Shown in pieces: positions 7,184 to 51,550 of a DNA stretch of 64,000 nucleotides. The notes beneath the pieces were generated by a model, which searched no databases, had not been told where the DNA came from, and saw only the letters and a list, made by a program, of their open reading frames with translations. Every line of letters begins with the position of its first letter. Position 1 is the stretch's first letter. Source of the DNA: Planctomycetota bacterium (GTDB taxonomy: Bacteria > Planctomycetota > B15-G4 > SIAN01); the NCBI GenBank assembly GCA_031409275.1, contig JANNXA010000016.1:1-64000 (forward strand), written 5' to 3'. The position numbers and the translations under genes are program-made.

Positions 7184-8923
7184 ATGCAGCGCCGCATGAA
7201 CCGCTCGATCCGCCGCGACCGCCACCTCTCCCGCCTGATCACCGTGACCACGGCGTGCCGCCGCGCCGCTTTCGGCATCGCGCTGATGGCGGCGGACGCC
7301 ACCGCGCACGAGACGACGCGCGTCAGCGTGGACTCGGCGGGCACCGAGGCGAACGGCTCCAGCTTCCTCTCGTTGGCGGGGCTTTCCGCCGACGGGCAGG
7401 TGATCGCGTTCCAGAGCTCCGCTTCGAACCTCGTCGCCGGCGACACCAACGGCATCGAGGACGTCTTCGTCCACGATCGCGCGACGGGGCTCACGCACCG
7501 CGTCAGCGTCGACTCGGCGGGCGGGCAGATGGACCAGAGCAGCGCCGGCTACATCGAAGGGGCCTCGATCTCGGGAGACGGGCGGTTCGTGGCCTTCTCG
7601 ACCGACGCCTCCGACCTCGTCGCCGGTGACACCAACGGCGGTTTCGACATCTTCGTCCACGATCTCGCCACCGGCGTCACCGAACGGGTGAGCGTCGACT
7701 CGGCCGGCGCCGAAGCGGACTTCGAGAGCTACGAGCCGTCGCTCTCGGCGAACGGGCAGTTCGTCGTCTTCGCGAGCGCCGCGACCAACCTCATCGCCGG
7801 CGACACCAATGGCGTGACCGACGTCTTCGTCCATGACCGCGCGAGCGGAACCACGGAGCGGGTCAGCGTGGCGACGTCGGGCACGCAGGGGGCCCTCGAC
7901 AGCTACAAGCCGACGATCTCGGCCGACGGGCAGGTCGTCGCCTTCTTCAGCCAGGCGACGACGTTCGCCTCCGGCGATACGAACAACGCGCCCGACATCT
8001 TCGTGCACGAGCGCGCGACCGGCCTCACCACCTGCGTGAGCGTCGACTCGGCGGGCGGCCTCGCCGATGGCGCCAGCGATGCGCCGTCGATCTCCGCGGA
8101 CGGGAAGGTCGTCGCGTTCGAGAGCGACGCCACCAACCTCGTCGCGGGCGACAGCAACGGGACCACCGACATCTTCGTCCACGAGCGGGCGAGCGGCACG
8201 ACGCGCCGCGTCAGCGTCGACTCGGCGGGCGCGCAGGGCGCCGGCTCGAGCAGCGACCCGGCACTCTCCTCCGACGGGCGCTTCGTCGCGCTGCGCAGCA
8301 GTTCCGACCAGCTCGTGCCCGGCGACGGCAACGGAGTGAGCGACACCTTCGTCCACGACTGCACCACCGGGCTCATCGAACGCGTCAGCGTCGACTCGGC
8401 CGGCGTGGAAGGGAACGGCGTCAGTTACCACCCGTCGCTCTCCGCCGATGGGCAGATCGTGGCCTACTACAGCTTCGCCTCGAACCTCGTGGCCGGTGAC
8501 GCGAACGTGGCCCACGACGTCTTCGTCCACAGCCGCTGCGTCGACGCGAGCTGGTCGACCTACGGAGTCGGTTTCGCCGGCACCAACGGCATTCCAGCGT
8601 TCACGGCGCAGGGCGATCCGCTGCTCGGGACGACGGTCACCGTCGCGCTCGCCAATTCCTCGAACGCGACGACCCTTGCCTACGTCTTGATCGGCGGCAC
8701 GTCGATCCTCGTCCCGACCGGCAAGGGCGGCGACCTGCTGGTCGCACCGTCCTCGACGATCGTCCTCGTGTTGCCGACCGGCGGTGCGACGATCGACGGC
8801 GACATCGCCGACGACGAGGCGCTCTGCGGCCTCGAACTGTTCCTCCAGGCGCTCGAACTCGATCCGGGTGCGCAAAAGGGGGTCTCGTTCACCGCGGGAC
8901 TGAACCTCGTGATCGGGCGGTGA
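7184..8923 (+). CDS. Secreted TolB/PD40-like beta-propeller protein with a conserved C-terminal domain
   Basis: SD AAGGAG before ATG 7184; signal-like N-terminus; 7 repeats of RVSVDSAG...SxDG..VAF.S.A.NLVAGDTNG..DVFVHD; distinct ~125-aa C-terminal domain from ~8552. Confidence 0.85.
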   Translation: MQRRMNRSIRRDRHLSRLITVTTACRRAAFGIALMAADATAHETTRVSVDSAGTEANGSSFLSLAGLSADGQVIAFQSSASNLVAGDTNGIEDVFVHDRATGLTHRVSVDSAGGQMDQSSAGYIEGASISGDGRFVAFSTDASDLVAGDTNGGFDIFVHDLATGVTERVSVDSAGAEADFESYEPSLSANGQFVVFASAATNLIAGDTNGVTDVFVHDRASGTTERVSVATSGTQGALDSYKPTISADGQVVAFFSQATTFASGDTNNAPDIFVHERATGLTTCVSVDSAGGLADGASDAPSISADGKVVAFESDATNLVAGDSNGTTDIFVHERASGTTRRVSVDSAGAQGAGSSSDPALSSDGRFVALRSSSDQLVPGDGNGVSDTFVHDCTTGLIERVSVDSAGVEGNGVSYHPSLSADGQIVAYYSFASNLVAGDANVAHDVFVHSRCVDASWSTYGVGFAGTNGIPAFTAQGDPLLGTTVTVALANSSNATTLAYVLIGGTSILVPTGKGGDLLVAPSSTIVLVLPTGGATIDGDIADDEALCGLELFLQALELDPGAQKGVSFTAGLNLVIGR

Positions 8924-8977: not shown

Positions 8978-11900
8978 ATGGCGGCTGCAGCATCGAGCGA
9001 CGAAGGCGCGGACCGCGCGAGCAGCGGCGAGGAGGCCGATGTCCGCGACGCCGTCGAGGTCCTCGTGGAGGAGTTCTTCGAACGGCGGCGCGCGGGCGAC
9101 GCTTCCGACGTCGGCGAGTTCGCGCGGCGGGTGCCCGGCCGCGAGGCGGAGTTCCGGGGACTCGTCGCGGCGCTCGGGATCCTCGAATCGGCGGCCACGG
9201 CGGCGCAGGCCGCGGCGACGCGCGCGACAGTGCCCGAGCAGCTCGGCCGTTTTCGGCTGCTGCGCAAGGTGGGCCGCGGCGGAATGGGCGTCGTCTACGA
9301 AGCGATCGACGACGAACTCGGCCGCCACGTCGCGCTGAAGGTCCTGCCAGGACATGCAACGCTCGATGAGCGCGAGATCGCGCGCTTCCGCCGCGAGGCG
9401 CAGTCCGCGGCGCGATTGAACCACCCCCACATCGTGCCGGTGTACGGCGTCGGCGAGGAGGCCGGCACCCACTGGATCTCGATGCAGTTCATCGCCGGCT
9501 CGAGCCTCGACCAGCTCGCGCGCGCCGCTCGCGACGATGGCACGGCACGCATGGAGGCGCGCGAGGTGGCGCGCCACGGACTTGCGCTCGCCGACGCACT
9601 CGCCTGCGCGCACGCGGAAGGAGTCCTCCATCGTGACGTGAAACCCTCGAACGTGCTGCTCGATCGCAGCGGAACGGTGTGGATCACCGACTTCGGCCTC
9701 GCGACCGCGGAAGGCTCGGTGGCCATCACGCGCACCGGCGAGACGGTCGGCACCCCGCGCTACATGGCGCCCGAAGCGTTCTCCGGATGGGCCGATCCGC
9801 GCACCGACGTGTGGGGAGTCGGCGTCACGCTCTACGAGCTGCTCTCGGGACACCCGCCGTTCGATGGCACCGACCGCGCGCAGCTGCTGAAGCAGATCGT
9901 GGACCACGAGCCCAGACCGCTGCGCAGCGTCGAGCCGCCGTTGCCGCGCGACCTCACCACCATCGTCCATCGCTGCCTGCAGAAGGACCCCGGCGCGCGC
10001 TACTCCTCCGCGCGCGACCTCGCCGACGACCTGCGCCGCTTCCTCGAAGGCGCCCCGATCCGGGCGCGCGCCCCTTCGCTCGCCGATCGCGCGAGCCTGC
10101 TGATTCGCCGCCATCGCGGCGGCGCCATCGCGGCAGCCGTCGCGCTCGTCACGTTGATCGTGCTCCTCGGTGGCTGGGCCGAGACGCTGCGCCGCAAGAA
10201 CGTCCGGCTCGCGACGGAGATGGCGCGCGCCGAGGAGAATCTCGGAGTGGCCAGCGACGCGATCCAGAGCGTCCTCGACGAGGCTGCCGACGTCATCTTT
10301 CGCGCGCCGGCGCTCGATCCGATGCGGCGCCGACTGCTCGAGGCCGCGCTCGCCTTCGAACTGCGGCTGCTCGCGCATCAGGAGCAGAGCCCCACCAAGC
10401 GCTTCGACGTCGCCCTCGCGCACGTTCGAGTCGGCGCCATCGATTGGTCGCTGCAACGCTTCGAGGAGAGCCGCTGTCACTACGACGCGGCGGTGACGGC
10501 CTTGCGCGCCAGCCGTCGTCTGCCGGGTGGCGCGAACGTCGAATCGACGACGATGCAGCTGGCGACCGCGCTCGCTGGCATCGCATGCGGTGCGCGAGAT
10601 CGCGGCGACCTCGCGACGGCGGAGGCCGCGCTGCGAGAAGCGCTCGCGATGATCGAGGAGTTCATCGCCGGTGCGCCGCGCAGCACCGACCAGGCGTTCC
10701 ACCTCGTCGACACGACCACGCTGCTCGTCGAGCTGCTGGCGCGGCAACGCCGGGCCAGCGAAGGAGCAGCGCTCATGCGGGCGACGCTTCCGCGGGTCAC
10801 GGCCTGGCTCGATCGCGACGACGCCGCGCTCGCGCCCTCGCGAGTGCTGCGCGATGCGTGGCTGCAGCTCGCGGACGTGCAGTTCCAGGCGGGCGAGACC
10901 GGCGCGACGGTCGAGACGTTTCGCGGTGCGCTCGCGATCTCGCAACGGCTGGTCAGTGTCGCGGACCCGGACGTGCGCGACCTCGAGATCGATGCGTGCC
11001 GGCGCTCCTGGCTCGGCGGCCTGTTGCATCGGATCGGTCGGGCGCCGGAGGCTCTGGTGCTCCTCGCCAACGCGAGCGCGGATCTCGAGGCGATCGTCCG
11101 CCGCTGGCCGATGGTGCCGGAGTTCCGACGCGATCTCGCCACCGCCCTCACTCGCGGAGCCGTCGCTGCCGGATCGAGCGATCCAGCCGCCGAGGTCGAG
11201 GCGACGTTGAAGCGCGCCATCGAGCTCGCGGACGAAGGACTCGCGCAACGGCCGGACGACGCGAGCTTTGCGTTCGCTGCGCTCCAGGCACGCAACGTCC
11301 TCACCACGCGGCGCGACGAGCGCGATGAGCCGGACGCGGCGTACGCCATCGCGCTCGACGCGACCCGGCTCGTCGAAGCATGGGATTCCTCGATTGCGAC
11401 CTGGCCGTCCGCCGTCGTCGAGCAGGCGGCCGTCGCGTGGTACGACCGCGGTGTCGTCGAGCGCAAGCAGAGCCGAGTCGACGCTGCGTGCGCTTCGTTC
11501 GCGAACGCCGCCAAGCTCCTCGACATGCAGTCGAATGGCGGCAACGAAGAGCCCGCCGCGCGCGACCTACGCCTGCGTATGAGCGTCGCATCAGCCGACC
11601 TGGAGGCGAGCCGCGGCGCGATCGAGGTGGCACTCACGACATGGGGGAACGTCGAAACGGCCGTGCGACGCCTGCTCGAATCGGCGGATCTCGCCGCCGA
11701 CGCTCGCGCGGGCGATCCGACGCGGGCCGACCTCGCCGCGCTGCTCGTCGAAGCGCTGAACCTCGACGCGAACGTGCGCGCGCGCCATGGCGATCCGGCC
11801 GATCGCGGCGGCGCGGAGCAGCGGCTCGCGGAAGCGCTCCGGCTCGGGAGCGAACTGGTGCAAGGCTGGCCCGAGCGCGCCGACTTCGCCGCGGCGCTGG

Positions 11901-12415
11901 GGATGGCACATGGCGACGCCGGCTGGCTGGCGAAGGTCGCGCAAGATCATCCGCGTGCACGCGCCGAGTTCGCTCTCGCGCTGCCACTCCTCCAGCGGGC
12001 GCTCGAACGCGAACCGCGCCAACGCAGCTGGCGCAACGCGCTCGCGACGGCGCTCGACTGGCTCACCGTCTCGCTGCAGCCCTTCGACGACGCGCACGAC
12101 CGCGCCGCGATGGCGACGTTGCTCGATCGCGCGGCTGCCGCTGCGAGTGCGGCGACGGCGGACCCGGAAGTGCAGTGGGAAGCCGCGCGCCTCTTCGCGC
12201 GCGCCGCGTTCGTCGCCCACGGTCCGCTCGAGCGCCTGCTTGGCGGCGACGCTCGCGATCCGTGGGCCGACGCGGCGATGAAGCACCTGCGCATCGCGAG
12301 CTCCGCCGGATTCGGCGATCCCGGCCGGTTCGAGGGCGACGTCGCGTTCGCCTCGCTCGAGCGGCGCGACGACTTCCGCGACTGGCTCGCCGACCTCACG
12401 GCGACGCGCCGCTGA
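8978..12415 (+). CDS. Hanks-type Ser/Thr protein kinase with TM segment and TPR-like helical C-terminus
   Basis: GRGGMG, VALK, HRDVKPSN, DFG, GTPRYMAPE; TM GAIAAAVALVTLIVLLGGWA; 1145 aa. Confidence 0.95.
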   Translation: MAAAASSDEGADRASSGEEADVRDAVEVLVEEFFERRRAGDASDVGEFARRVPGREAEFRGLVAALGILESAATAAQAAATRATVPEQLGRFRLLRKVGRGGMGVVYEAIDDELGRHVALKVLPGHATLDEREIARFRREAQSAARLNHPHIVPVYGVGEEAGTHWISMQFIAGSSLDQLARAARDDGTARMEAREVARHGLALADALACAHAEGVLHRDVKPSNVLLDRSGTVWITDFGLATAEGSVAITRTGETVGTPRYMAPEAFSGWADPRTDVWGVGVTLYELLSGHPPFDGTDRAQLLKQIVDHEPRPLRSVEPPLPRDLTTIVHRCLQKDPGARYSSARDLADDLRRFLEGAPIRARAPSLADRASLLIRRHRGGAIAAAVALVTLIVLLGGWAETLRRKNVRLATEMARAEENLGVASDAIQSVLDEAADVIFRAPALDPMRRRLLEAALAFELRLLAHQEQSPTKRFDVALAHVRVGAIDWSLQRFEESRCHYDAAVTALRASRRLPGGANVESTTMQLATALAGIACGARDRGDLATAEAALREALAMIEEFIAGAPRSTDQAFHLVDTTTLLVELLARQRRASEGAALMRATLPRVTAWLDRDDAALAPSRVLRDAWLQLADVQFQAGETGATVETFRGALAISQRLVSVADPDVRDLEIDACRRSWLGGLLHRIGRAPEALVLLANASADLEAIVRRWPMVPEFRRDLATALTRGAVAAGSSDPAAEVEATLKRAIELADEGLAQRPDDASFAFAALQARNVLTTRRDERDEPDAAYAIALDATRLVEAWDSSIATWPSAVVEQAAVAWYDRGVVERKQSRVDAACASFANAAKLLDMQSNGGNEEPAARDLRLRMSVASADLEASRGAIEVALTTWGNVETAVRRLLESADLAADARAGDPTRADLAALLVEALNLDANVRARHGDPADRGGAEQRLAEALRLGSELVQGWPERADFAAALGMAHGDAGWLAKVAQDHPRARAEFALALPLLQRALEREPRQRSWRNALATALDWLTVSLQPFDDAHDRAAMATLLDRAAAAASAATADPEVQWEAARLFARAAFVAHGPLERLLGGDARDPWADAAMKHLRIASSAGFGDPGRFEGDVAFASLERRDDFRDWLADLTATRR

Positions 12416-12995
12416 ACTCCGCGAGGATGTCGCGCAGCCGATTCGCCGCACGCAGGTAGCGCAGGCTGGCGCCGGGCGGCGAGAGGTGCAGGAGACGCGC
12501 GACATCGGCATTGGAGAGCTGCTCGAAGTGACGCAGCAGCAGCACTTCGCGGTCCTCCGCCTTCATCGAGTCGAGCGCGACGTGCAGACGAGCGGCGACC
12601 TCATCGCGCGAGGCGACGCCCGACGGCGAGAGGACGCCGCTCTCCGCGATCGCGTTCGCGAGCGTCGCGGCGCTGGCGTCCTCGCGCGCCAGATCGCGCA
12701 TCGCCGTGCCGAGGTGGTGCCGATGCAGTTGCAACAGCTTCTGGCCAGCGATGAAGCGCAGCCAGAGATGGAGCGGCATCGCCTCGCCGTCGAGCCACTG
12801 GGGCAGTCGCTCGATCGCCTCGACGCACGCCTCCTGCACGACGTCGGAGGCATCGACGCGGCCGCGCAGCCGCGGGTCCATCCGCAGCTCGACCATCCGG
12901 CGCAACCGCGCGCGACGCTGCGCGACGAACTCGCCGAACCGCGACGGGTCGATGCGGAGCTGCGCGCGCAACGCCTCCTCGTCATCGCCGTCCAT
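12396..12995 (-). CDS. ECF sigma-70 factor, planctomycete type
   Basis: RLRRMVELRMDPRLRGRVDASDVVQE (region 2), WLRFI, SPS, DREVLLLRHFEQLSNADVA (region 4); overlaps the 3' end of the kinase convergently by 20 bp. Confidence 0.92.
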   Translation of the reverse strand: MDGDDEEALRAQLRIDPSRFGEFVAQRRARLRRMVELRMDPRLRGRVDASDVVQEACVEAIERLPQWLDGEAMPLHLWLRFIAGQKLLQLHRHHLGTAMRDLAREDASAATLANAIAESGVLSPSGVASRDEVAARLHVALDSMKAEDREVLLLRHFEQLSNADVARLLHLSPPGASLRYLRAANRLRDILAEFSGASP

Positions 12996-33350: not shown

Positions 33351-35000
33351 TCAGAACAGGTCGAACTCGATCCCCGCGCTGGTGGCGAAGCCGCCGACGG
33401 CCAGCCCGTCCTCGATGAACCACTCGGCGAAGAGCTCGAGGCCGATCAGCGTCGGATCGTCGGGCAGCTCGCCGACGAAGCTGGCGTAGCCGTTGCCGGC
33501 GCCGCTGCTGGCGGTGAGGAAGGTGCCGACGTAGGCGATCTGCGCGAGGTCGATGTTCACCGGGATGCCCTTCCACGTCGTGCCGGGCGGCGCCGCGGCG
33601 AACGCGAGGATCGCCAACGCGAGCCGATTGCCGCGCGCCTCGAAGACACCGAACTTGAAGTCCCAGTTGCCGACGTTGGGCGGCGTCACCGCGATCGCAC
33701 GCGGCTCGAAGCCGCCGGCGCCGCGCGTTCCGCGGCCATAGAGGCTCGGGTTGTTGAGGTTGCGCTCGGTGTAGAGCTGCGGACGGTCGAAGGGCGCCCG
33801 CTCCTGCGCGACCCGGCTGTCGGTGAGGCCGTTGACGACGAAATCGACGAGGTCGTCATGCTCGCGGCGCGTCAGGTTGAGCGGCACGATCGCGGCGTCG
33901 CGATTGTCGGCGAAGTCGCCGCCGCGGTTGTAGAAGTCGACCACCTGGTGCAGGTCGACGAATTGTCCCGTGTGCGTGAAGCGGCGGCGGATGCCGGCGT
34001 TGCGCAGGCTCGGCACCTTCATCTTCCCGCGGTCGCCGAAGTTGCCGGTGACCGTCTGCCGGCCCGGATCGGTCGCCGGATCGCGCAGCCCGATGTTGCG
34101 GAAGGTGTGATCGGAGAAATGGCCGAGCGCATGGCACTTCACGCAGCCCGCCTTGCCGGTGAAGACGTTCAGTCCATTCTGCTGGCGTGACGTCAGCGCG
34201 TTGCTGTTGCCGGCGTTGAAGTCATCCCACGGCGTCTGGTCCGGGATGATCGAGCGCTGATACGTGGCCAGTGCATACGCGATGCGCTCGGCGGTGATGG
34301 CCGGGTCGCCAAACGCCGTGTCGAAGAGGTCGGCATAGGTCGGATCGACGCTCAACGCCGCGACCACGTCGGCCGGCAGGTTGGCCGCGAGCGCCAACGG
34401 ATCGGAGAGCGAGAGCTTGGTCGCGACCTCGGTCCAGTCGCGCGCCGCATGTCCCATCTCGACCGACGAGACGATCGGCGCGACCGCCTGGCTTTCGAGC
34501 GCACCGCCACTGGCGATGGAGACGAGTCCGGTCTGCGGATCGATGAAGGTCGAGGCCGCGCGCCCGTCCCAGAAGTTCTCGGCGGCGAACGCGGCCATCA
34601 GGAACGACGGCGAGTTGCGCGGCGTCGCCTGCGCGAGGAAGCCGTGGATCGGATCGGGCTCGTACTGGTTGAACGCATCCGAACGGATGACGCCCGGCGA
34701 GCCGAACAGGTCATCGGGCGACGGCCGGATCCCATCGGGTCCGGGATTGGCGATGAAGCGCAGATCGGCGCCGCCTTGCGCCGGCCGATGGCACGTGCCG
34801 CACGCCACCGTGTTGTCGCTCGACAGCTGCTCGTCCCAGAAGAGGATCTTGCCCAGCACCGCTTTCTCCGGCGTCACCGGGTTCTCGGGCGGCGCGGTGG
34901 GCGGAGGAATCTGGGCCGACGCGTGGCGAGCCGCGAAGACGACGGCAGCCGACGCGGCGACACGGCCGAGGCAACGAGCAGCGAGCGGGGCTCGAATCAT
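33351..35000 (-). CDS. Secreted di-haem cytochrome c peroxidase (CcP/MauG family) with extra C-terminal domain
   Basis: Signal peptide; LGKILFWD..LS, CGTCH, FWDGRA, CVKCH, KVPSLRN; SD GGAGGT before ATG 35000. Confidence 0.92.
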   Translation of the reverse strand: MIRAPLAARCLGRVAASAAVVFAARHASAQIPPPTAPPENPVTPEKAVLGKILFWDEQLSSDNTVACGTCHRPAQGGADLRFIANPGPDGIRPSPDDLFGSPGVIRSDAFNQYEPDPIHGFLAQATPRNSPSFLMAAFAAENFWDGRAASTFIDPQTGLVSIASGGALESQAVAPIVSSVEMGHAARDWTEVATKLSLSDPLALAANLPADVVAALSVDPTYADLFDTAFGDPAITAERIAYALATYQRSIIPDQTPWDDFNAGNSNALTSRQQNGLNVFTGKAGCVKCHALGHFSDHTFRNIGLRDPATDPGRQTVTGNFGDRGKMKVPSLRNAGIRRRFTHTGQFVDLHQVVDFYNRGGDFADNRDAAIVPLNLTRREHDDLVDFVVNGLTDSRVAQERAPFDRPQLYTERNLNNPSLYGRGTRGAGGFEPRAIAVTPPNVGNWDFKFGVFEARGNRLALAILAFAAAPPGTTWKGIPVNIDLAQIAYVGTFLTASSGAGNGYASFVGELPDDPTLIGLELFAEWFIEDGLAVGGFATSAGIEFDLF

Positions 35001-44039: not shown

Positions 44040-46364
44040 TCACTTCTCGTGCGCGAGCGCTCGCGCCAGCTCCTCGCGGCCGCGCGCCAGCCGCGGATCC
44101 TGATGGTGACGGCGGTCGGCCACCGCGACGGCCTCCTTCAGATGCGGCAGCGCGGCGTCGACCTCGCCGGCATCGACGAGCGCCAGCCCGAGCTGCAGCA
44201 GCGAACCGAGGCGCGCCGGCGAATCGACTTCGTAGTGCCTGCTGCGGATCGCCAGCGCGTCCTCGAAGAGCGGCACCGCCTCGGCCGGGCGCCCATCGGC
44301 CGCCTTGAGCTCGCCGAGCAGCGCCAGCGACCAGCCGATGTTGGGGCTCATCGCGTCGAAGAGGCCGCGGCGGATCTCGAGGCTGCGTTCGAAGAGCGCC
44401 TCTGCCTCGCTCCACTGCTCGAGCGCGCGCAGCACGCGGCCCAACGTGTCGAGCGCGATGCAGTAGCGCGGATCGGCTTCCGGCAGCAGCGTCGTGGTCA
44501 ACGCCAGCGCGGCGCGCGCCGGCGCCTCGGCGGCCGCCGTTTCGCCCGCCGCCAGCGAGTTGAGGGCCTGCGCGACCTGCAACCCCGCCATCACCGGGCG
44601 CTCCGGCCCGCCCGTCGGGCGCACCCGCTCGATCGTCGCGCGTAGCAGCCGATCCGCCTCGGGGAAGCGGTTCACCGCGGTGTACGACAACGCGAGGTCG
44701 TTGGCGATGAGCGTCCACTGCTCGCCCGGATCACCGAGCTCGTCGCACATCGCCAGCGCCTGCTGCAGGTGGCCGATCGACGCCTCGTAGCGCGCCGAGT
44801 TTCGCTCGGCCCAGCCGAGCCAGCGCAGAAGCTCGAGTCGATGGGCGGCGTCGAGCGCGCCGCTCGCGTCGGCCAACGCCTGCGCCTTCTCGAACTGCGC
44901 CGCCGCCCACCCCGCGTAGCCGAGCGAGCCGTTCACCCGACCGAGCGCGATGCGCAGCTCGACCTCGAGCGCGGGCTCGTCCTTCAGCAGCCCCTTCTCG
45001 AGCTCGTCGTTGGCGAACTTGAGCTGCTTGTTCAGCGATTCGCCGAAGCCGCGCGCCGAGCTCGGCTCGAGCTGCACCAGCATCTCTCGCAGCAGCTTGT
45101 TGACGCGCGCCGCCGCGTCGGCGTTGCGCCGCGCCTTGCGCGACCCGGAGACGAGCCCCGCGGCGCCCGCTGAAAGCGCGAACAGCGCGATCAGCAGCGC
45201 CGCGGCCAGCGCGCGCCGCCGCCTCAAGAACTTGGCGGTCAGGTAGACGAATCCGGGCGGCCGCGCGACGATCGGCTCGTGGGCGAGGTGGCGGCGCAGA
45301 TCGGCGGCGAGCTGGTCGACCGTCGCGTAGCGCCGCTCCGCTTCGGGCGCGATCGCATTGGCGACGATCGCGTCGAGGTCGCCGCGCAGCCGGCGCCGCA
45401 GCCGGGCCGGATCGGCCTCGCCGCGCGCATGCGCTGCCGCCGCGTCGATCGCCGTCGCGCTCGGCCTCGGAGGCGTCGTCTCGCAGATGGCGCGCTCGAG
45501 GTCGGTCGGCGAAGTCTCCGATTCGCGCCACGGTCGGCTGCCGGTCAGCAGCTCGTGGAGCATCACGCCGAGCGAGAAGACGTCGCTCGCCACCGTGACC
45601 GGCGCGCCGCGCACCACCTCGGGGCTTGCGTACTCGGGGGTGAGGCGCCGTTCGCGCGTGCGCGGCGCCTCCTCGCCGTCGATCGGCTCGAGCAGTTTCG
45701 CGATGCCGAAGTCGAGCAGCTTCGCGGCCCCGTCGGCGCCGATCAGCACGTTGCTCGGCTTCAGGTCGCGATGGATGACCAGCCGTTGGTGCGAGTACTG
45801 GACCGCCGCGCAGACGTCGAGGAAGAGGCGCAGCCGCGCATCGACGGACAGGCGCCGCTCGTCGCACCAGCGGTCGAGCCGCGTGCCGACGACCAGCTCC
45901 ATGACGAGGTAGGGCACCCCTTCCGGGGTCGCACCGCCGTCGATCAGCCGCGCGATGTTCGGGTGGGAAAGTCCGGCGAGGAGCTGCCGCTCGCGACGAA
46001 AGCGCTCGAACGCCTCGGCGCGCTCGACGCCGTGCTTCAGCAGCTTCAGCGCGACCTGCTGCTCGAAGGCGCCATCGTCGCGCGCCGCGCGGTAGACCAC
46101 CCCCATGCCGCCAGCGCCGAGCCGCTCGAGGACGCGCCACCGCTCGATCGTCCGGCCGATCCATGGGTCGGCCGCCTGCTCCAGCAGCCCGCGTGCGCCG
46201 GCGTCGTCGTCGACCGCGAGCAGCGCCGACACTTCGGCGCGCAACGCCTCGTCGCCGCGGCACTGCTCGGCGAGGAACGCGGTGTGACGCTCGCGCGGCA
46301 GCTCCTTCGCGGCGGCGAAGAGCGCTTCGAGTCGCTGCAGTCGTTGGCGATCGGCATCACTCAT
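44040..46364 (-). CDS. Hanks-type Ser/Thr kinase with TM segment and TPR repeats
   Basis: GAGGMG, VALK, HRDLKPSN, DFGIAK, TPEYASPE; TPR-like C-terminus. Confidence 0.95.
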   Translation of the reverse strand: MSDADRQRLQRLEALFAAAKELPRERHTAFLAEQCRGDEALRAEVSALLAVDDDAGARGLLEQAADPWIGRTIERWRVLERLGAGGMGVVYRAARDDGAFEQQVALKLLKHGVERAEAFERFRRERQLLAGLSHPNIARLIDGGATPEGVPYLVMELVVGTRLDRWCDERRLSVDARLRLFLDVCAAVQYSHQRLVIHRDLKPSNVLIGADGAAKLLDFGIAKLLEPIDGEEAPRTRERRLTPEYASPEVVRGAPVTVASDVFSLGVMLHELLTGSRPWRESETSPTDLERAICETTPPRPSATAIDAAAAHARGEADPARLRRRLRGDLDAIVANAIAPEAERRYATVDQLAADLRRHLAHEPIVARPPGFVYLTAKFLRRRRALAAALLIALFALSAGAAGLVSGSRKARRNADAAARVNKLLREMLVQLEPSSARGFGESLNKQLKFANDELEKGLLKDEPALEVELRIALGRVNGSLGYAGWAAAQFEKAQALADASGALDAAHRLELLRWLGWAERNSARYEASIGHLQQALAMCDELGDPGEQWTLIANDLALSYTAVNRFPEADRLLRATIERVRPTGGPERPVMAGLQVAQALNSLAAGETAAAEAPARAALALTTTLLPEADPRYCIALDTLGRVLRALEQWSEAEALFERSLEIRRGLFDAMSPNIGWSLALLGELKAADGRPAEAVPLFEDALAIRSRHYEVDSPARLGSLLQLGLALVDAGEVDAALPHLKEAVAVADRRHHQDPRLARGREELARALAHEK

Positions 46365-46418
46365 GGCCTGGTGCCGACTCCGCCGGTTCGGCGGTCGCGG
46401 CAGCTCACGAGACGTCGC

Positions 46419-47006
46419 TCACGTCGTGTCGCCGCGACGCAACTCGCGCAGCAGCCAGGCGCGGGCGAACTCCCAATCGCGCTTCACCGTCGCCGGCGAG
46501 GAAGCGAGCGCTTCGGCCGTCTCCTCCACCGAGAGGCCGGCGAAGTAGCGCAACTCGACCACCTTCGCCTTGCGTTCGTCGAGCGCCGCGAGTCGCGTCA
46601 GCGCTTCGTCGAGCGCCAGCAGATCGACTGGCTCCCCGGCATCGGGCGCGGGAAGCCCGGCCACGGCGTCGGTCCCTTCGCGCGCCCGCCCGCCGCCGCG
46701 TTTCTCGCTGCCGCGCTTCTCCGCATGGTGGACCAGCACGCGGCGCATCGCCGTCGCCGCGATCGCGAGGAAATGGGAGCGCGACTCGAAATGCGCCTGC
46801 GTCTGGCCGGCGAGCTTCAGGAACGCCTCGTGCACCAGCGCCGTCGGCTGCAGCGTGTGGCCCGGCTTCTCGCGACGCAGTTGCGCCGAGGCAAGATCGC
46901 GCAACTCCTCGTAGACCAGCGGGAACAGCAGCTCCGCCACCGGCTCGCCGCGCGCGAGGTCGGCGAGGAGTCGGGTCACCTCTTCGGAGCGGTCATCCGC
47001 GGGCAT
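46419..47006 (-). CDS. ECF sigma factor of the kinase-associated (TIGR02999/ECF43-like) type
   Basis: VTRLL, LFPLVYEELR, HTLQPTALVHEA, KRGG, VVELRYFAGL, TVKRDW..ARAWL; directly upstream of the kinase. Confidence 0.93.
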   Translation of the reverse strand: MPADDRSEEVTRLLADLARGEPVAELLFPLVYEELRDLASAQLRREKPGHTLQPTALVHEAFLKLAGQTQAHFESRSHFLAIAATAMRRVLVHHAEKRGSEKRGGGRAREGTDAVAGLPAPDAGEPVDLLALDEALTRLAALDERKAKVVELRYFAGLSVEETAEALASSPATVKRDWEFARAWLLRELRRGDTT

Positions 47007-47231: not shown

Positions 47232-49370
47232 ATGACCCTGCGTCCACCCCGTTTCATCCGCGCGCTGTCGCTGCTCGCTCCGTTCGCGCTCGCCGCTTGC
47301 GGCGGAGGCGGCGGCGGGTCGCAAGCGGTGCGCAACGTCGCGCCGACGGTGACGCTGGCGCTGCAGGGGCCGTCCATGACGGACGCGGCGACGACGACGG
47401 TCCATGGCCTGGCGAGCAGCGCGGCGGGGATCGCCGAGGTGAGCGCCGGCGGCGTGCTGGCCGCGACCAGCGATGGCTTCGCGACGTTTGGCGTGCAACT
47501 GCCGCTCGTGTTGGGCGACAACGCCTTCAACGTCGTCGCGCGCGACCGGTCCGGCCGCACGAAGACGGTGGCGGTGCCGCCGATCCGGCGCGAGACACCG
47601 CTCTTGGCGGGGGTCAGCGCGAGCGCCATCGACCCGACCGGCAACTTCGGGCTCTCCGCTTCCAACAACCTTCCCAACGAGCTCTTCCTCGTCGACACGA
47701 CCACCGGCGCGCGCACTCGGCTCTCGGGTGCCTTGAACGGCGGCGGGTCATCGCTGCCGGTCACGTTCAGGGCCACGTTCACCGCCGACGGCAAGTCGAT
47801 CCTGCTTTCGACGTTCGGCAATTTCAGCGACGGACCGATCTTCGTCGTCGACACCTCGACCGGTGATCGGACCGCCCTGCCATTGACCGCTCGATTCGCC
47901 GGCGGACTGGCCCACGACCCCAAACGCAAGCTCGTGGTGTACACCACCGGCTCCAGCAAGACGCTGCGCATCGCGAAGCTCGACGGCAGCAGCGACGGGG
48001 TCTTCAGCGACGGCAACGACGGCAAGTCGCCGCCGATGTCGCAGCCAGCCGCCGTCGTGTACGACCCGACCGAGGACGACTACATCGTCGTCGATGAGTC
48101 CGCGACGAACCCTTCCGTGTTGCTGGTCTCCACGATCGACGGATCTCGCAAGCTCCTGTCCGACCTTGCCGACCCGGGAGCAGGGCCGACGGTGGCCTCC
48201 CCCGGCCCGATCGCCATCGACGACGCCAAGCGCGAGCTCTACCTGTTCGCCCAGAACTCGGGAGCGATCGTGCGCATCGACCTGAACAGCGGCACGCGGA
48301 CGATCGCCCTCGCCGCCGATCCCAACCTCGGACCACTCCCGGCCTTGGCCGGGGCGCTCAGCCTCGAGCCGAACAGCGGCCATCTCTTCGTGCCAGAAGG
48401 TCGGCGCTGGATCGAGTACGACCTCGCCGCGCAGCGGCGCACCAGTTTCGCCGACGCGATCGTCGGAAGCGGCACGCCGCTCTTCTTCGATCCCTTCGAC
48501 CCCGACCCCGCCCTTTTCACGACGCCCGATCGGTCACGTCGACGCTTGCTGTTGCATGCCGCGAACCGCGGGATCGACGCGCTCGATCTCGCCACCGGCG
48601 TTCGCGCTCCCCTCGTCGATGGAAGCTCGTCGGCGATCGAGTTCGGCGACGTCGAGGTGGGCGCCGACCTCGATCAACTGCTGGTCATCGATGAAGCGCT
48701 GCCCGGCATCCAGCGCCTCGATGCGAAGACGCTCGCCGCGACGCTGGTCAGCGACGACACCCGCGGAAGCGGGCCGAACTTCGGCGTCGGCACCTCCGCT
48801 CCAACGCAGCTCGCCGTCGATGCAGCCGGAGGCCGCTGCTTCGTGATGGACACGTCGAACCGGCGCCTGCTCGCCGTCGATCTCGCCACCGGCAATCGCG
48901 GCGTGCTCGCAGAGGTTGGCGACGGCAAGCCGACGTTCATCACCTTCCTGTTCGGAATCGCGTACGACTCGTTGACCGCCCGGCTCCTCGCCATCGACAA
49001 CAACCAACCTGGCGTCGTCGTGATCGACCCGGACACCGGCGCGCGCACCCTCTTCGCCAACGTTCCCAACGCCTCGATGCCGGACGTGCCGAAGGGCCTC
49101 TGCTGCATCGACGAGGCGTCGCACGCCCTTCTGGTGGCGCAACGCGACTTCGGTGGCACCCAGTCGCTGATTCGCGTCGACCTCGACGATGCGACGCGCA
49201 GCACGATCTCGTCATCGATCCTGGACATCGGAACCGGGCCCGCCATACGCTCCCTTCGCTCGCTCAGCTGCGACGGCTCAACGGGCCGCGCCTTCGGATT
49301 CGAAACCAGCCTGCTGGCGCTGTTCCAGATCGACCTCGAGAGCGGCGACCGCGTGCTGATCGCGAAGTGA
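47232..49370 (+). CDS. Lipoprotein with Ig-like N-terminal domain and beta-propeller repeats (paralog A)
   Basis: Lipobox LAAC then GGGGGGS; LVLGDN Ig-like motif; recurring D..TG.R..LS / GSGP repeats. Confidence 0.8.
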   Translation: MTLRPPRFIRALSLLAPFALAACGGGGGGSQAVRNVAPTVTLALQGPSMTDAATTTVHGLASSAAGIAEVSAGGVLAATSDGFATFGVQLPLVLGDNAFNVVARDRSGRTKTVAVPPIRRETPLLAGVSASAIDPTGNFGLSASNNLPNELFLVDTTTGARTRLSGALNGGGSSLPVTFRATFTADGKSILLSTFGNFSDGPIFVVDTSTGDRTALPLTARFAGGLAHDPKRKLVVYTTGSSKTLRIAKLDGSSDGVFSDGNDGKSPPMSQPAAVVYDPTEDDYIVVDESATNPSVLLVSTIDGSRKLLSDLADPGAGPTVASPGPIAIDDAKRELYLFAQNSGAIVRIDLNSGTRTIALAADPNLGPLPALAGALSLEPNSGHLFVPEGRRWIEYDLAAQRRTSFADAIVGSGTPLFFDPFDPDPALFTTPDRSRRRLLLHAANRGIDALDLATGVRAPLVDGSSSAIEFGDVEVGADLDQLLVIDEALPGIQRLDAKTLAATLVSDDTRGSGPNFGVGTSAPTQLAVDAAGGRCFVMDTSNRRLLAVDLATGNRGVLAEVGDGKPTFITFLFGIAYDSLTARLLAIDNNQPGVVVIDPDTGARTLFANVPNASMPDVPKGLCCIDEASHALLVAQRDFGGTQSLIRVDLDDATRSTISSSILDIGTGPAIRSLRSLSCDGSTGRAFGFETSLLALFQIDLESGDRVLIAK

Positions 49371-49767
49371 CACCCCACGACCGACGATTTCGGAGAGCCT
49401 CCGTGCCCCAGCATCCGCCTCGTTTCATTCGCGCGCTGTCGCTGCTCGCTCCGTTCGCGTTCGCTGCTTGCGGCGGAGGCGGCGGCGGGTCGCAAGCGGT
49501 GCGCAACGTCGCGCCGACGGTGACGCTGGCGCTGCAGGGGCCGTCCATGACGGACGCAGCGACGACGACGGTCCATGGCCTGGCCAGCAGCGCGGCGGGG
49601 ATCGCCGAGGTGAGCGCGGGCGGCGTGCTCGCCGCGACCAGCGATGGCTTCGCGACGTTTGGCGTGCAACTGCCGCTCGTGTTGGGCGACAACGCCTTCA
49701 ACGTCGTCGCGCGCGACCGGTCCGGCCGCACGAAGACGGTGGCGGTGCCGCCGATCCGGCGCGAGAC
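47250..49767 (+). repeat. ~350-bp near-identical direct repeat (47250-47596 and 49421-49767) at the 5' ends of the two paralogs
   Basis: Constant 2171-bp offset, with only a few mostly synonymous differences by eye. Confidence 0.9.
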
Positions 49768-51550
49768 GCCGCTGCTGCGAACGTTCAGAGCGAGCGCCAT
49801 CGACCCGACCGGCGGGCACGGACTCGTCGCTTGCAACCGAACCCCAAGTGAAGTCCTGCTCGTCGACACCACTAGGGGCGCACGCACCCTGATCTCAGGT
49901 CCTGGGAACGGCAACGGCACGTTGCTCGGCGATCCGCTCGATGCCGCCTTCACTGCCGACGGCAACTCGATCCTGGTGTCGACCATCAATCCAGTCGCGA
50001 TGTTCCTGGTGGACGCGGCCAGCGGCGATCGCACGGTCCTTCCGCAGACGGCGAGCTTTGTTGGCGGAATCACCCACGACCCCAAGCGCAAGCGCGCGGT
50101 CTACACCAACAATTTCTTCGCCAAGGCGTTGCGTGCCGTGCCCCTCGCCGGCGGCAGCGACACCGTCCTCAGCGACGGCAACGACGGCAAGTCTCCGCCG
50201 ATGTCGGTGCCGAGTGGCGTGGTGTATGACCCGACGGACGATGACTACCTCGTCGTCGATGCGGACACGAGCGCGCCGACGCTGCTGCTGGTGTCGACGA
50301 TCGACGGCTCGCGCAAGATCCTCTCCGACCTCGTGGATGGCACGGTCGGGCCGACGGTCGCGAAACCGGGGCCGATCGCACTCGACGACGCCAAGCGAGA
50401 GCTCTACTTGTTCGCGCAGACCACGGGCGAGATCGTGCGCATCGACTTGAACAGCGGCACACGGACGCTCGCGCTCGCGGCCGATCCGGCCCTTGGACCG
50501 CTGATCACCTCCGCGGAGACGCTCAGCCTCGACCCGAATAGCGGCCACCTGCTGGCGGCGGACGGCAACTCCGACCATTGGATCGAGTACGACCTCGCCG
50601 CGCAGCGGCGCACCACTTTCGGCGAAGTGACCGTTGGCAGTGGCGACCCGCTCTTCAGCTCCTCGGCCTTTTTCGAGACCCGAGCCTTCGCGACGCCTGA
50701 CCTGACGCGCGGGCGCCTGCTCCTGGCGGCGGAGGATTTCGGTCTCGACGCCCTCGACCTCGCCACCGGCGCTCGCACCCACCTCATCGCGGGAAGCGCG
50801 ACCGCCATCGACTTCCAGAACGTCGCCATCGGCGCGAACGCGAATGAGCTGCTGGTCGCCGATACCGCCCTGCCAGGCATCCAGCGCCTCGACGCGACGA
50901 CGCTCGCCGTGACGCTGGTCAGCAGCAGCACGCGCGGCAGCGGCCCGAACTTCATTTTGGGCACCAGCGGTCCGACGCAGATCGTCGTCGACGCCTCGGG
51001 CGGACGCGGCTTCGTGCTCGACGCGAACGAATCGCGCCTGCTCGCCCTCGACCTCGCGACCGGCGATCGCACCGTCCTGGCGCAGAACGGCGACGGCAAG
51101 CCGGTCCCTCTGTCGTTCCTGCTCGGGATGGCTTTCGACGCCTCGACCAATCGCATCCTCGCCATCGACGCTGTCCAGCCCGGTGTCGTGGTCATCGACG
51201 CAGCGACCGGCGATCGCTCCCTCTTCGCGAACGTGAGCGTCAGCGGAATGTTCGACGTGCCGAAGGGCCTCTGCTGCATCGACGACGCGTCGCGCGCGCT
51301 GCTGGTCGTCGGATCGGTTGCGGGCGCTGGTGGCGTGGTGAACGACGTGATCCGCGTCGACCTCGACGACGCCTCGCGCCAGTTGATCTCGTCGTCCGCA
51401 TCCGGGATCGGCACGGGGCCCGCGCTATTCGAAGTGACCGCGATCAGCTGCGACGGGGCCGCTGGACGCGCCTTCGCCGTCGACGCGAAACTGGACGCGC
51501 TGTTCCAGATCGACCTCGCGAGCGGCGACCGCGTGCTGATCGCGAAGTAG
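49403..51550 (+). CDS. Lipoprotein with Ig-like N-terminal domain and beta-propeller repeats (paralog B)
   Basis: FAAC lipobox; collinear with paralog A; start at GTG 49403 (GGAG upstream) or GTG 49367. Confidence 0.8.
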   Translation: MPQHPPRFIRALSLLAPFAFAACGGGGGGSQAVRNVAPTVTLALQGPSMTDAATTTVHGLASSAAGIAEVSAGGVLAATSDGFATFGVQLPLVLGDNAFNVVARDRSGRTKTVAVPPIRRETPLLRTFRASAIDPTGGHGLVACNRTPSEVLLVDTTRGARTLISGPGNGNGTLLGDPLDAAFTADGNSILVSTINPVAMFLVDAASGDRTVLPQTASFVGGITHDPKRKRAVYTNNFFAKALRAVPLAGGSDTVLSDGNDGKSPPMSVPSGVVYDPTDDDYLVVDADTSAPTLLLVSTIDGSRKILSDLVDGTVGPTVAKPGPIALDDAKRELYLFAQTTGEIVRIDLNSGTRTLALAADPALGPLITSAETLSLDPNSGHLLAADGNSDHWIEYDLAAQRRTTFGEVTVGSGDPLFSSSAFFETRAFATPDLTRGRLLLAAEDFGLDALDLATGARTHLIAGSATAIDFQNVAIGANANELLVADTALPGIQRLDATTLAVTLVSSSTRGSGPNFILGTSGPTQIVVDASGGRGFVLDANESRLLALDLATGDRTVLAQNGDGKPVPLSFLLGMAFDASTNRILAIDAVQPGVVVIDAATGDRSLFANVSVSGMFDVPKGLCCIDDASRALLVVGSVAGAGGVVNDVIRVDLDDASRQLISSSASGIGTGPALFEVTAISCDGAAGRAFAVDAKLDALFQIDLASGDRVLIAK

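Follow-up and report, generated by a model that had tools for sequence, protein, structure and literature searches.

Two otherwise unrelated proteins encoded in the window, the stretch of 64,000 nucleotides of planctomycete DNA analysed here, end in tails that, judged by their sequences, are one domain family. A terminal, multi-copy and lineage-specific tag is a known kind of thing, while the tail family itself is nameless in the libraries searched. Since the domain is placed singly at the terminus of diverse exported cargo and is exchanged with known tags, we consider it likely that it serves an address function, all readings of this kind taken together.

The propeller protein consists of a signal-like N-terminus, a PD40/TolB-like propeller and a C-terminal type A tail, and translation of the peroxidase gene gave a signal peptide, a CCP_MauG di-haem domain and a C-terminal tail. 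A sequence-only reading of the window had proposed a shared terminal domain on two secreted proteins with unrelated cargos. Indeed, the C-termini that it quoted were correct, both tails (123 and 132 residues) running to the stop codon; Pfam assigned the cargos to unrelated families, PD40 propeller and di-haem peroxidase; and signal-like N-termini were recognised by eye on both proteins. That the tails align was borne out through intermediates and a profile, whereas the direct pairwise match was modest. BLASTP aligned 41 residues at 39% identity, the Smith-Waterman score of 64 was equalled in 1 of 2000 shuffles, and phmmer with the propeller tail did not return the peroxidase tail at E≤1. However, both tails matched the common intermediates C28:41547 (E 7e-6 and 1e-5 to the two window tails), C9:18703 (4e-6 and 1e-5) and C5:6920 (1e-3 and 3e-7), and an iterated profile converged at 62 ORFs of the host genome, with the two tails as its seeds and their own profile scores hence circular. 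We therefore conclude that the two tails are homologous despite their modest direct match. Directly after the propeller gene, at 8978-12995 of the window, a Ser/Thr kinase gene with a long helical C-terminus, convergent with an ECF-type sigma gene, was noted by eye, as was a second Ser/Thr kinase/ECF-type sigma gene pair at 44040-47006. A tandem pair of near-identical lipoproteins (712/715 aa) is located at 47232-51550.

Table. Positions of the two tail-bearing window proteins, their tails and the Ig-like lipoproteins of the host genome
Feature	Position	Strand	Basis
PD40/TolB-like beta-propeller protein, 579 aa	7184..8923	+	gene call; ATG, GAAGGAG upstream; PF07676 E 1.6e-20
Type A tail of propeller, 123 aa	8552..8923	+	translation; AlphaFold2 model
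Di-haem cytochrome c peroxidase (CcP/MauG), 549 aa, two CxxCH	33351..35000	-	gene call; PF03150 E 2.2e-37
Type A tail of peroxidase, 132 aa, divergent subgroup	33351..33749	-	shared intermediates and profile
Ig-like lipoprotein L176	C16:217866-220970	-	
Ig-like lipoprotein L177	C27:147587-150649	-	
Ig-like lipoprotein L180	C36:116718-120155	-	

Many further matches had been predicted, and they were found. In the host genome (5.59 Mb, 69.4% GC, 92.9% complete; 4,109 genes in our own gene calling), the 59-tail profile A1 detected type A tails in 64 genes, one domain per gene and never two per protein. The domain was C-terminal in 55 of these (at most 12 residues from the ORF end, a few such ORFs running into contig ends), lay directly behind the signal peptide in eight and was a broken fragment in one; it was neither tandem nor internal. 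When all C-termini were compared with one another, a shorter subtype emerged, type B, in 33 genes including four partial ones (HHalign probability to type A 96%), and a type C in seven genes (91% to A, 58% to B). Together the three subtypes amount to 104 of the 4,109 genes, or 2.5%. Family domains are 100-135 residues long, and the tails of this genome share 14-55% identity with the window tail. One cargo family carries the domain at either end, N-terminally in L041 and C-terminally in L038 and L054. Tail genes lie next to one another in 31 of 97 cases, and no recurrent secretion or sortase gene was present among the 375 neighbours of the 97 family genes. Several family genes are fragmented or frameshifted (C38:3063-5002, C40:241676, C17:1201, C30:41036).

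The expected taxonomic restriction was confirmed as well, the tail being confined to part of the Planctomycetota, where it was present in 41 of 201 genomes in a nearly all-or-none fashion: in 40 of the positive genomes, 7-22 candidates matched where no more than 22 were scored, and the remaining one had a single match. Within the order of the host, all 31 genomes were positive, with 20 to at least 143 matches each. Two distant genomes contained 125 and 110 matches; of their 30 best tails, 28 were C-terminal, one had a 26-residue extension and one was N-terminal. At E≤0.001 the profile retrieved 21,617 representatives (50% identity clusters), and the best 150 of these all ended within 4 residues of the C-terminus. 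Hits bearing names belonged to Planctomycetota, as did the ESM Atlas clusters, which are unnamed. Of 40 genomes tested, only those of families f1 and f3 showed an expansion of type B. The extreme C-terminal placement that had been claimed thus describes the majority of copies, in the host (55/64) and in the distant genomes (28/30), but not the copies after signal peptides (8/64 and 1/30) or the internal tails of 37 of the 78 peroxidase relatives considered below. The tail-rich genomes are probably one clade. The host also encodes, besides MreB, a MamK-like actin (L173, C55:167379-168458, plus strand; 399.6 bits against a cut-off of 400) which is probably a saltatorellin. High GC, MreB and a MamK-like actin agree with the description of the Saltatorellus clade (10.1101/817700; 10.64898/2026.10.26.761892), and from the 69% GC and this actin the tail-bearing branch appears to include this shape-shifting clade.

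The earlier remark that the domain matches no named family proved accurate for the libraries searched. The window tails had no match in Pfam or NCBIfam at E≤1, and the 59-tail profile found no PDB sequence match (best E 0.64). A description of the domain was likewise not found in the openly accessible literature searched. AlphaFold2 modelled both main subtypes as all-beta domains with high confidence (pLDDT 97.4 for type A, 94.1 for type B), type A being predicted as an Ig-like sandwich with an N-terminal Gly-rich arm and an inserted hairpin. The predicted final element is a beta-strand, not a transmembrane helix with a basic tail. VIA-align gave best Z-scores of 8.7 (type A, to Ig/macroglobulin domains) and 11.4 (type B), both to generic Ig-like domains. 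Below these, the models aligned to residues 1054-1158 of 6za2 (type A: Z 7.0, rmsd 3.4, 94 aligned, rank 23; type B: Z 9.6, rmsd 3.0, 99 aligned, rank 16) with 8-11% identity; this segment is the uncleaved PorU CTD (PMC11285876). No T9SS CTD structure other than PorU was among the VIA matches listed, and the PorU match of the models is suggestive, a hint that does not discriminate. With Foldseek, type A stayed without a match at E≤0.001 and type B gave generic Ig matches only; among the weak rows were ML-domain proteins that bind lipid (E about 1e-3, TM 0.36-0.46).

Conserved positions of the tail are mainly Gly and Pro, in addition to Asp88, Gln99 (98%) and Asp104. Surface-type aromatics are poorly kept (W1 32%, Y4 45%), and Pfam returned no CBM match, although the tail may still be a CBM of a kind yet to be described. 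Strands at positions 44-47, 62-64, 67-74 and 96-103 are hydrophobic on both faces. Among 183 C-terminal copies, a Cys directly upstream of the tail was associated with a Cys near position 91 (63/26/25/69; both in 63, one in 51, neither in 69; odds ratio 6.7, inflated by kinship). This pairing in the sequences suggests a disulfide staple between tail and cargo rather than removal of the tail.

Ninety cargos of the host genome fell into 33 clusters. On 60 type A ORFs, Pfam recognised PD40, FG-GAP, Kelch, S8, M14, CcP, CHRD, GDSL, LVIVD, beta-helix and multihaem domains, and no cytoplasmic family. NCBIfam, run on 40 type A ORFs, gave matches above cut-off to choice-of-anchor B (L029) and choice-of-anchor V (L035, L037), the latter with a below-cut-off resemblance to the MYXO-CTERM-anchored MXAN_6652 family. 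By eye, the N-termini are Sec/SPI-like and frequently end in A-x-A-Q. In agreement with the predicted link to signal peptides, a simple and weak rule detected one in 79 of 92 family proteins, compared with 1,226 of 2,359 background proteins, and the same rule detected no convincing lipobox in the family. Similar cargos without any tail also exist in the host genome, for example C44:88061.

Some tail proteins and their neighbourhoods deserve a separate mention. Five paralogues (L034, L022, L025, L028, L027; C9:26350-31192 and C16:125929-126924, plus strand), four of which follow an ECF-type sigma gene as a tandem array, consist of a signal peptide, an N-terminal tail domain and a 200-aa Cys/Asp-rich domain that had no Pfam or NCBIfam match. 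In L039 (C47:17394-18023, minus strand), signal peptide and tail domain are followed by an Asp/Ser/Lys low-complexity repeat with weak matches to the SD repeats of MSCRAMM adhesins. A 140-160-aa protein ending in CCFGQCDD... lies beside type B tail genes in five places (C10:258009, C18:119763, C28:12473, C33:38119, C6:20303), several of which also adjoin related proteins of ~1,430 aa (C28:6538, C33:32169) and so form a repeated three-gene module. The tail-bearing L016 was seen by eye to be first in a cluster (C34:111794-122227) with a TonB-dependent receptor and ExbB/ExbD/TonB-like genes.

Choice-of-anchor families are defined by variable anchors of this sort. Where the host choice-of-anchor B protein carries the tail, its homologues end in TIGR04183 (P0199, P0201; the T9SS CTD, in Bacteroidota-type homologues), GCX_COOH (P0205) or dockerin_GC (P0204). 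A comparable exchange was observed in 78 relatives of the window peroxidase. The tail was at the end in 23, followed by a dockerin-like module in 34 (four of these assigned by eye) and followed by another domain in three; the rest had a dockerin-like module alone (10), other ends (5) or were truncated (3). The tail was thus kept in 60 of the 78. NF041540 scored above cut-off in three of 12 scanned C-termini. In a peroxidase tree, built by a quick method with a long-branch outgroup and an unsure root, all forms with other tags fell into one 98%-supported group of 53 rows. In Phycisphaerales, the window's type of peroxidase additionally bears a dockerin. Because the homologues of both cargos swap ends in this way, we conclude that the tail takes the position which in other lineages belongs to recognised sorting or anchoring domains. 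The T9SS-like modular organisation that had been postulated agrees with the presence of dockerins or T9SS CTDs in the tail's place on homologous cargo. Other lineage-specific C-terminal domains occur on the same peroxidase in Polarisedimenticolaceae, Binatia and others (L072, L082, L133, L085, L123, L139), those scanned being without an NCBIfam match, and one relative (L110) has an end resembling a membrane-anchored tag.

At the level of genomes, three Phycisphaerales had 150, 65 and 112 GC-dockerin matches and 2, 1 and 1 tails, and two further genomes each had two weak matches to the dockerin, with one tail in the first and none in the second. Conversely, among 33 tail-rich genomes, four had one GC-dockerin match and the others none. 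The reciprocity of tail and dockerin rests on three chosen genomes, because the 27 other genomes of the panel, 26 of them tail-negative, were dockerin-poor too, and two of the five genomes just named were low in both.

With respect to machinery, the proposal of a dedicated translocon was not upheld: none was found in the host genome. PorV (PF19572) had no match in this 92.9% complete genome, with B. thetaiotaomicron as a positive control, and SprA_N (PF14349) had none either, with an equally silent control; the control of the PF18962 genome search was silent as well. A C25 peptidase was dropped as a candidate PorU-like sortase, its sole copy lying in a 519-aa ORF of about half the PorU length. 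The genome encodes one BamA and six secretins, among them that of a gspD-E-F-G-pseudopilin cluster (C52:22865-31114) in which GspD scored 323 bits, below the TIGR02517 cut-off of 351. Two of the secretins lie beside a gene for a 964-aa TPR protein and ExbB/ExbD/ExbD-like motor genes at C36:82383-96477, possibly a proton-driven secretin system. A heuristic scan with a crude rule for outer-membrane barrels gave 24 candidates of ordinary size and no giant barrel, and an internal-repeat search detected no cohesin-like scaffold. A candidate partner is the family of L176, L177 and L180, Big_5-like lipoproteins of 1,000-1,700 aa that share a conserved, unnamed domain at the C-terminus (FQGAD...RFRVxFD), number as many as 18 per genome, are almost restricted to tail-rich planctomycetes and have no PDB sequence match. 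It co-occurred with the tail in 27 of 35 tail-rich and 0 of 30 other genomes when searched with a single protein, and in 38 of 43 and 4 of 37 with a C-terminal-domain profile, which was itself built from tail-rich genomes, both counts being confounded by kinship. As the tail-rich genomes are probably one clade, we regard this co-occurrence as a lead only.

Our preference, held tentatively, is that the tail is an uncleaved docking or anchoring tag with which a shared envelope partner holds Sec-exported proteins at the cell envelope. The proteins would pass through Sec by means of their signal peptides and fold in the periplasm, where the peroxidase must acquire its two haems. Transfer of the folded cargo to the surface would then follow a general pathway, for which the host's own type II secretion system is the most plausible choice, and the tail would bind a lineage-specific envelope component non-covalently, with the Ig-like lipoproteins as candidate and an outer-membrane lipid as an alternative ligand. 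Distribution, position, copy number and tag swapping of the domain are observed; location, partner and uncleaved state are proposed. The modular export or anchoring domain with a translocon of its own that was originally suggested is thus retained as a modular terminal tag, for which anchoring fits better than an own-translocon export signal because the domain is not strictly C-terminal, is kept in genomes with one or two copies and a dedicated translocon was not detected. On the other side, a genomic link between the tail genes and secretion genes was not seen, kinship confounds the co-occurrence counts and the Cys association, and the lipoprotein was absent from five of the 43 tail-rich genomes and present in four tail-poor ones. 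Moreover, the internal tails of Phycisphaerales peroxidases persist in genomes with almost no other copies, which a passive accessory domain would explain too. Such a domain (a stalk, a folding or stability cap, or a CBM-like binder of polymer or lipid), shuffled within one clade and without a sorting role, would also suit the generic Ig fold, the similar cargos without a tail and the weak ML-domain matches. We nevertheless consider it rather improbable: stalk repeats would be expected in tandem or internally, unlike the 64 host genes; there is no CBM or other Pfam match, conservation resides in Gly, Pro, Asp and Gln99 and not in aromatics; and the tail sits where recognised sorting domains sit.

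It seems unlikely to us that the tail acts as the T9SS CTD does, as an export signal which a translocon of the outer membrane (either a type II secretin or some machine not yet recognised) reads and which may be removed later. Such a signal would account for the mostly extreme C-terminal, single-copy placement of an Ig-like domain with near all-or-none distribution, for the replacement of TIGR04183 on choice-of-anchor B and for the alignment of both models to the PorU CTD, and the six secretins, two with motor genes beside them, offer potential machinery. However, the PorU match ranks below generic Ig domains, PorV was not found (SprA_N is uninformative given its silent control) and only one BamA is encoded. 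Retained docking is favoured over CTD-like export because of the eight N-terminal copies, the cargo tagged at either end, the exchange with dockerins, the putative disulfide staple and the missing PorV. A more far-reaching reading makes the tail the address label of an undescribed Saltatorellus-clade export-and-display system: a functional T9SS counterpart evolved without T9SS parts, serving 2-5% of the proteome through a secretin-based or new translocon, docked on the giant Ig-like lipoproteins and with a separate address for each of the types A, B and C. This, too, we regard as doubtful. Finally, the tails might bind one another and so display the cargos on a lattice or an extracellular matrix, S-layer-like with mixed subunits. 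The several strands with consecutive hydrophobic positions and copy numbers that reach the hundreds in some genomes would suit this arrangement, and strain Pla163, a cultured member of the Saltatorellus clade, is described as making an extensive matrix (10.1101/817700). Yet the tails of one genome are highly divergent and belong to three subtypes, and the arm and hairpin may cover the hydrophobic faces. We consider a lattice very unlikely.

Together these findings describe a nameless family of more than 21,000 clusters at 50% identity that marks about 2.5% of host genes and more than 100 genes in many relatives. As a marker at the sequence level, the tail points to the proteins that probably make up the envelope or surface proteome in a large and for the most part uncultured planctomycete branch, and it makes testable the long-open question of how proteins are placed on the unusual planctomycete envelope. 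Should the tail prove to be an export signal, it would stand for a new secretion route; should it prove to be a docking tag, the chemistry of display would be new. New in the present analysis are the division into three subtypes, the copies at the N-terminus, the reciprocity with dockerins and the lead to the lipoproteins.

Among known systems, the T9SS type A CTD of Bacteroidota (TIGR04183/PF18962) resembles the tail in combining a signal peptide and variable cargo with one terminal Ig-like beta-sandwich (predicted in the case of the tail, and C-terminal in most but not all of its copies), in its tens to hundreds of copies per genome, in overlapping cargo sets with a direct swap on choice-of-anchor B and, at the generic-Ig level, in the structural alignment of the models to the PorU CTD. 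In contrast to the CTD, the tail is longer (about 120 aa in type A, with Gly-rich arm and hairpin) and occurs N-terminally, and its host is a planctomycete. TIGR04183/PF18962 had no match in the window tails (E≤1), in the sets of 60 and 40 ORFs of the family or in three tails of type B, while P0199 and P0201 passed. Given the lack of a CTD model match, the failure to find PorV and the N-terminal copies, we do not count the tail among the T9SS CTDs. The GC-type dockerin of Phycisphaerales (NF041540) is, like the tail, a multi-copy C-terminal module on exported planctomycete proteins, with peroxidase and choice-of-anchor B as common cargos and expansions that did not overlap in the genomes tested; NF041540 matched neither the tails nor any host gene, as opposed to 65-150 in the three Phycisphaerales genomes. 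Dockerins are helical and bind calcium, whereas the tail is predicted to be all-beta and is about twice as long. PEP-CTERM, MYXO-CTERM and GlyGly-CTERM are likewise many-to-one terminal tags on exported proteins, and the NCBIfam CTERM models did not match the tails. These tags consist of a short motif, a membrane helix and basic residues, whereas the tail is predicted to be a folded domain that ends in a beta-strand.
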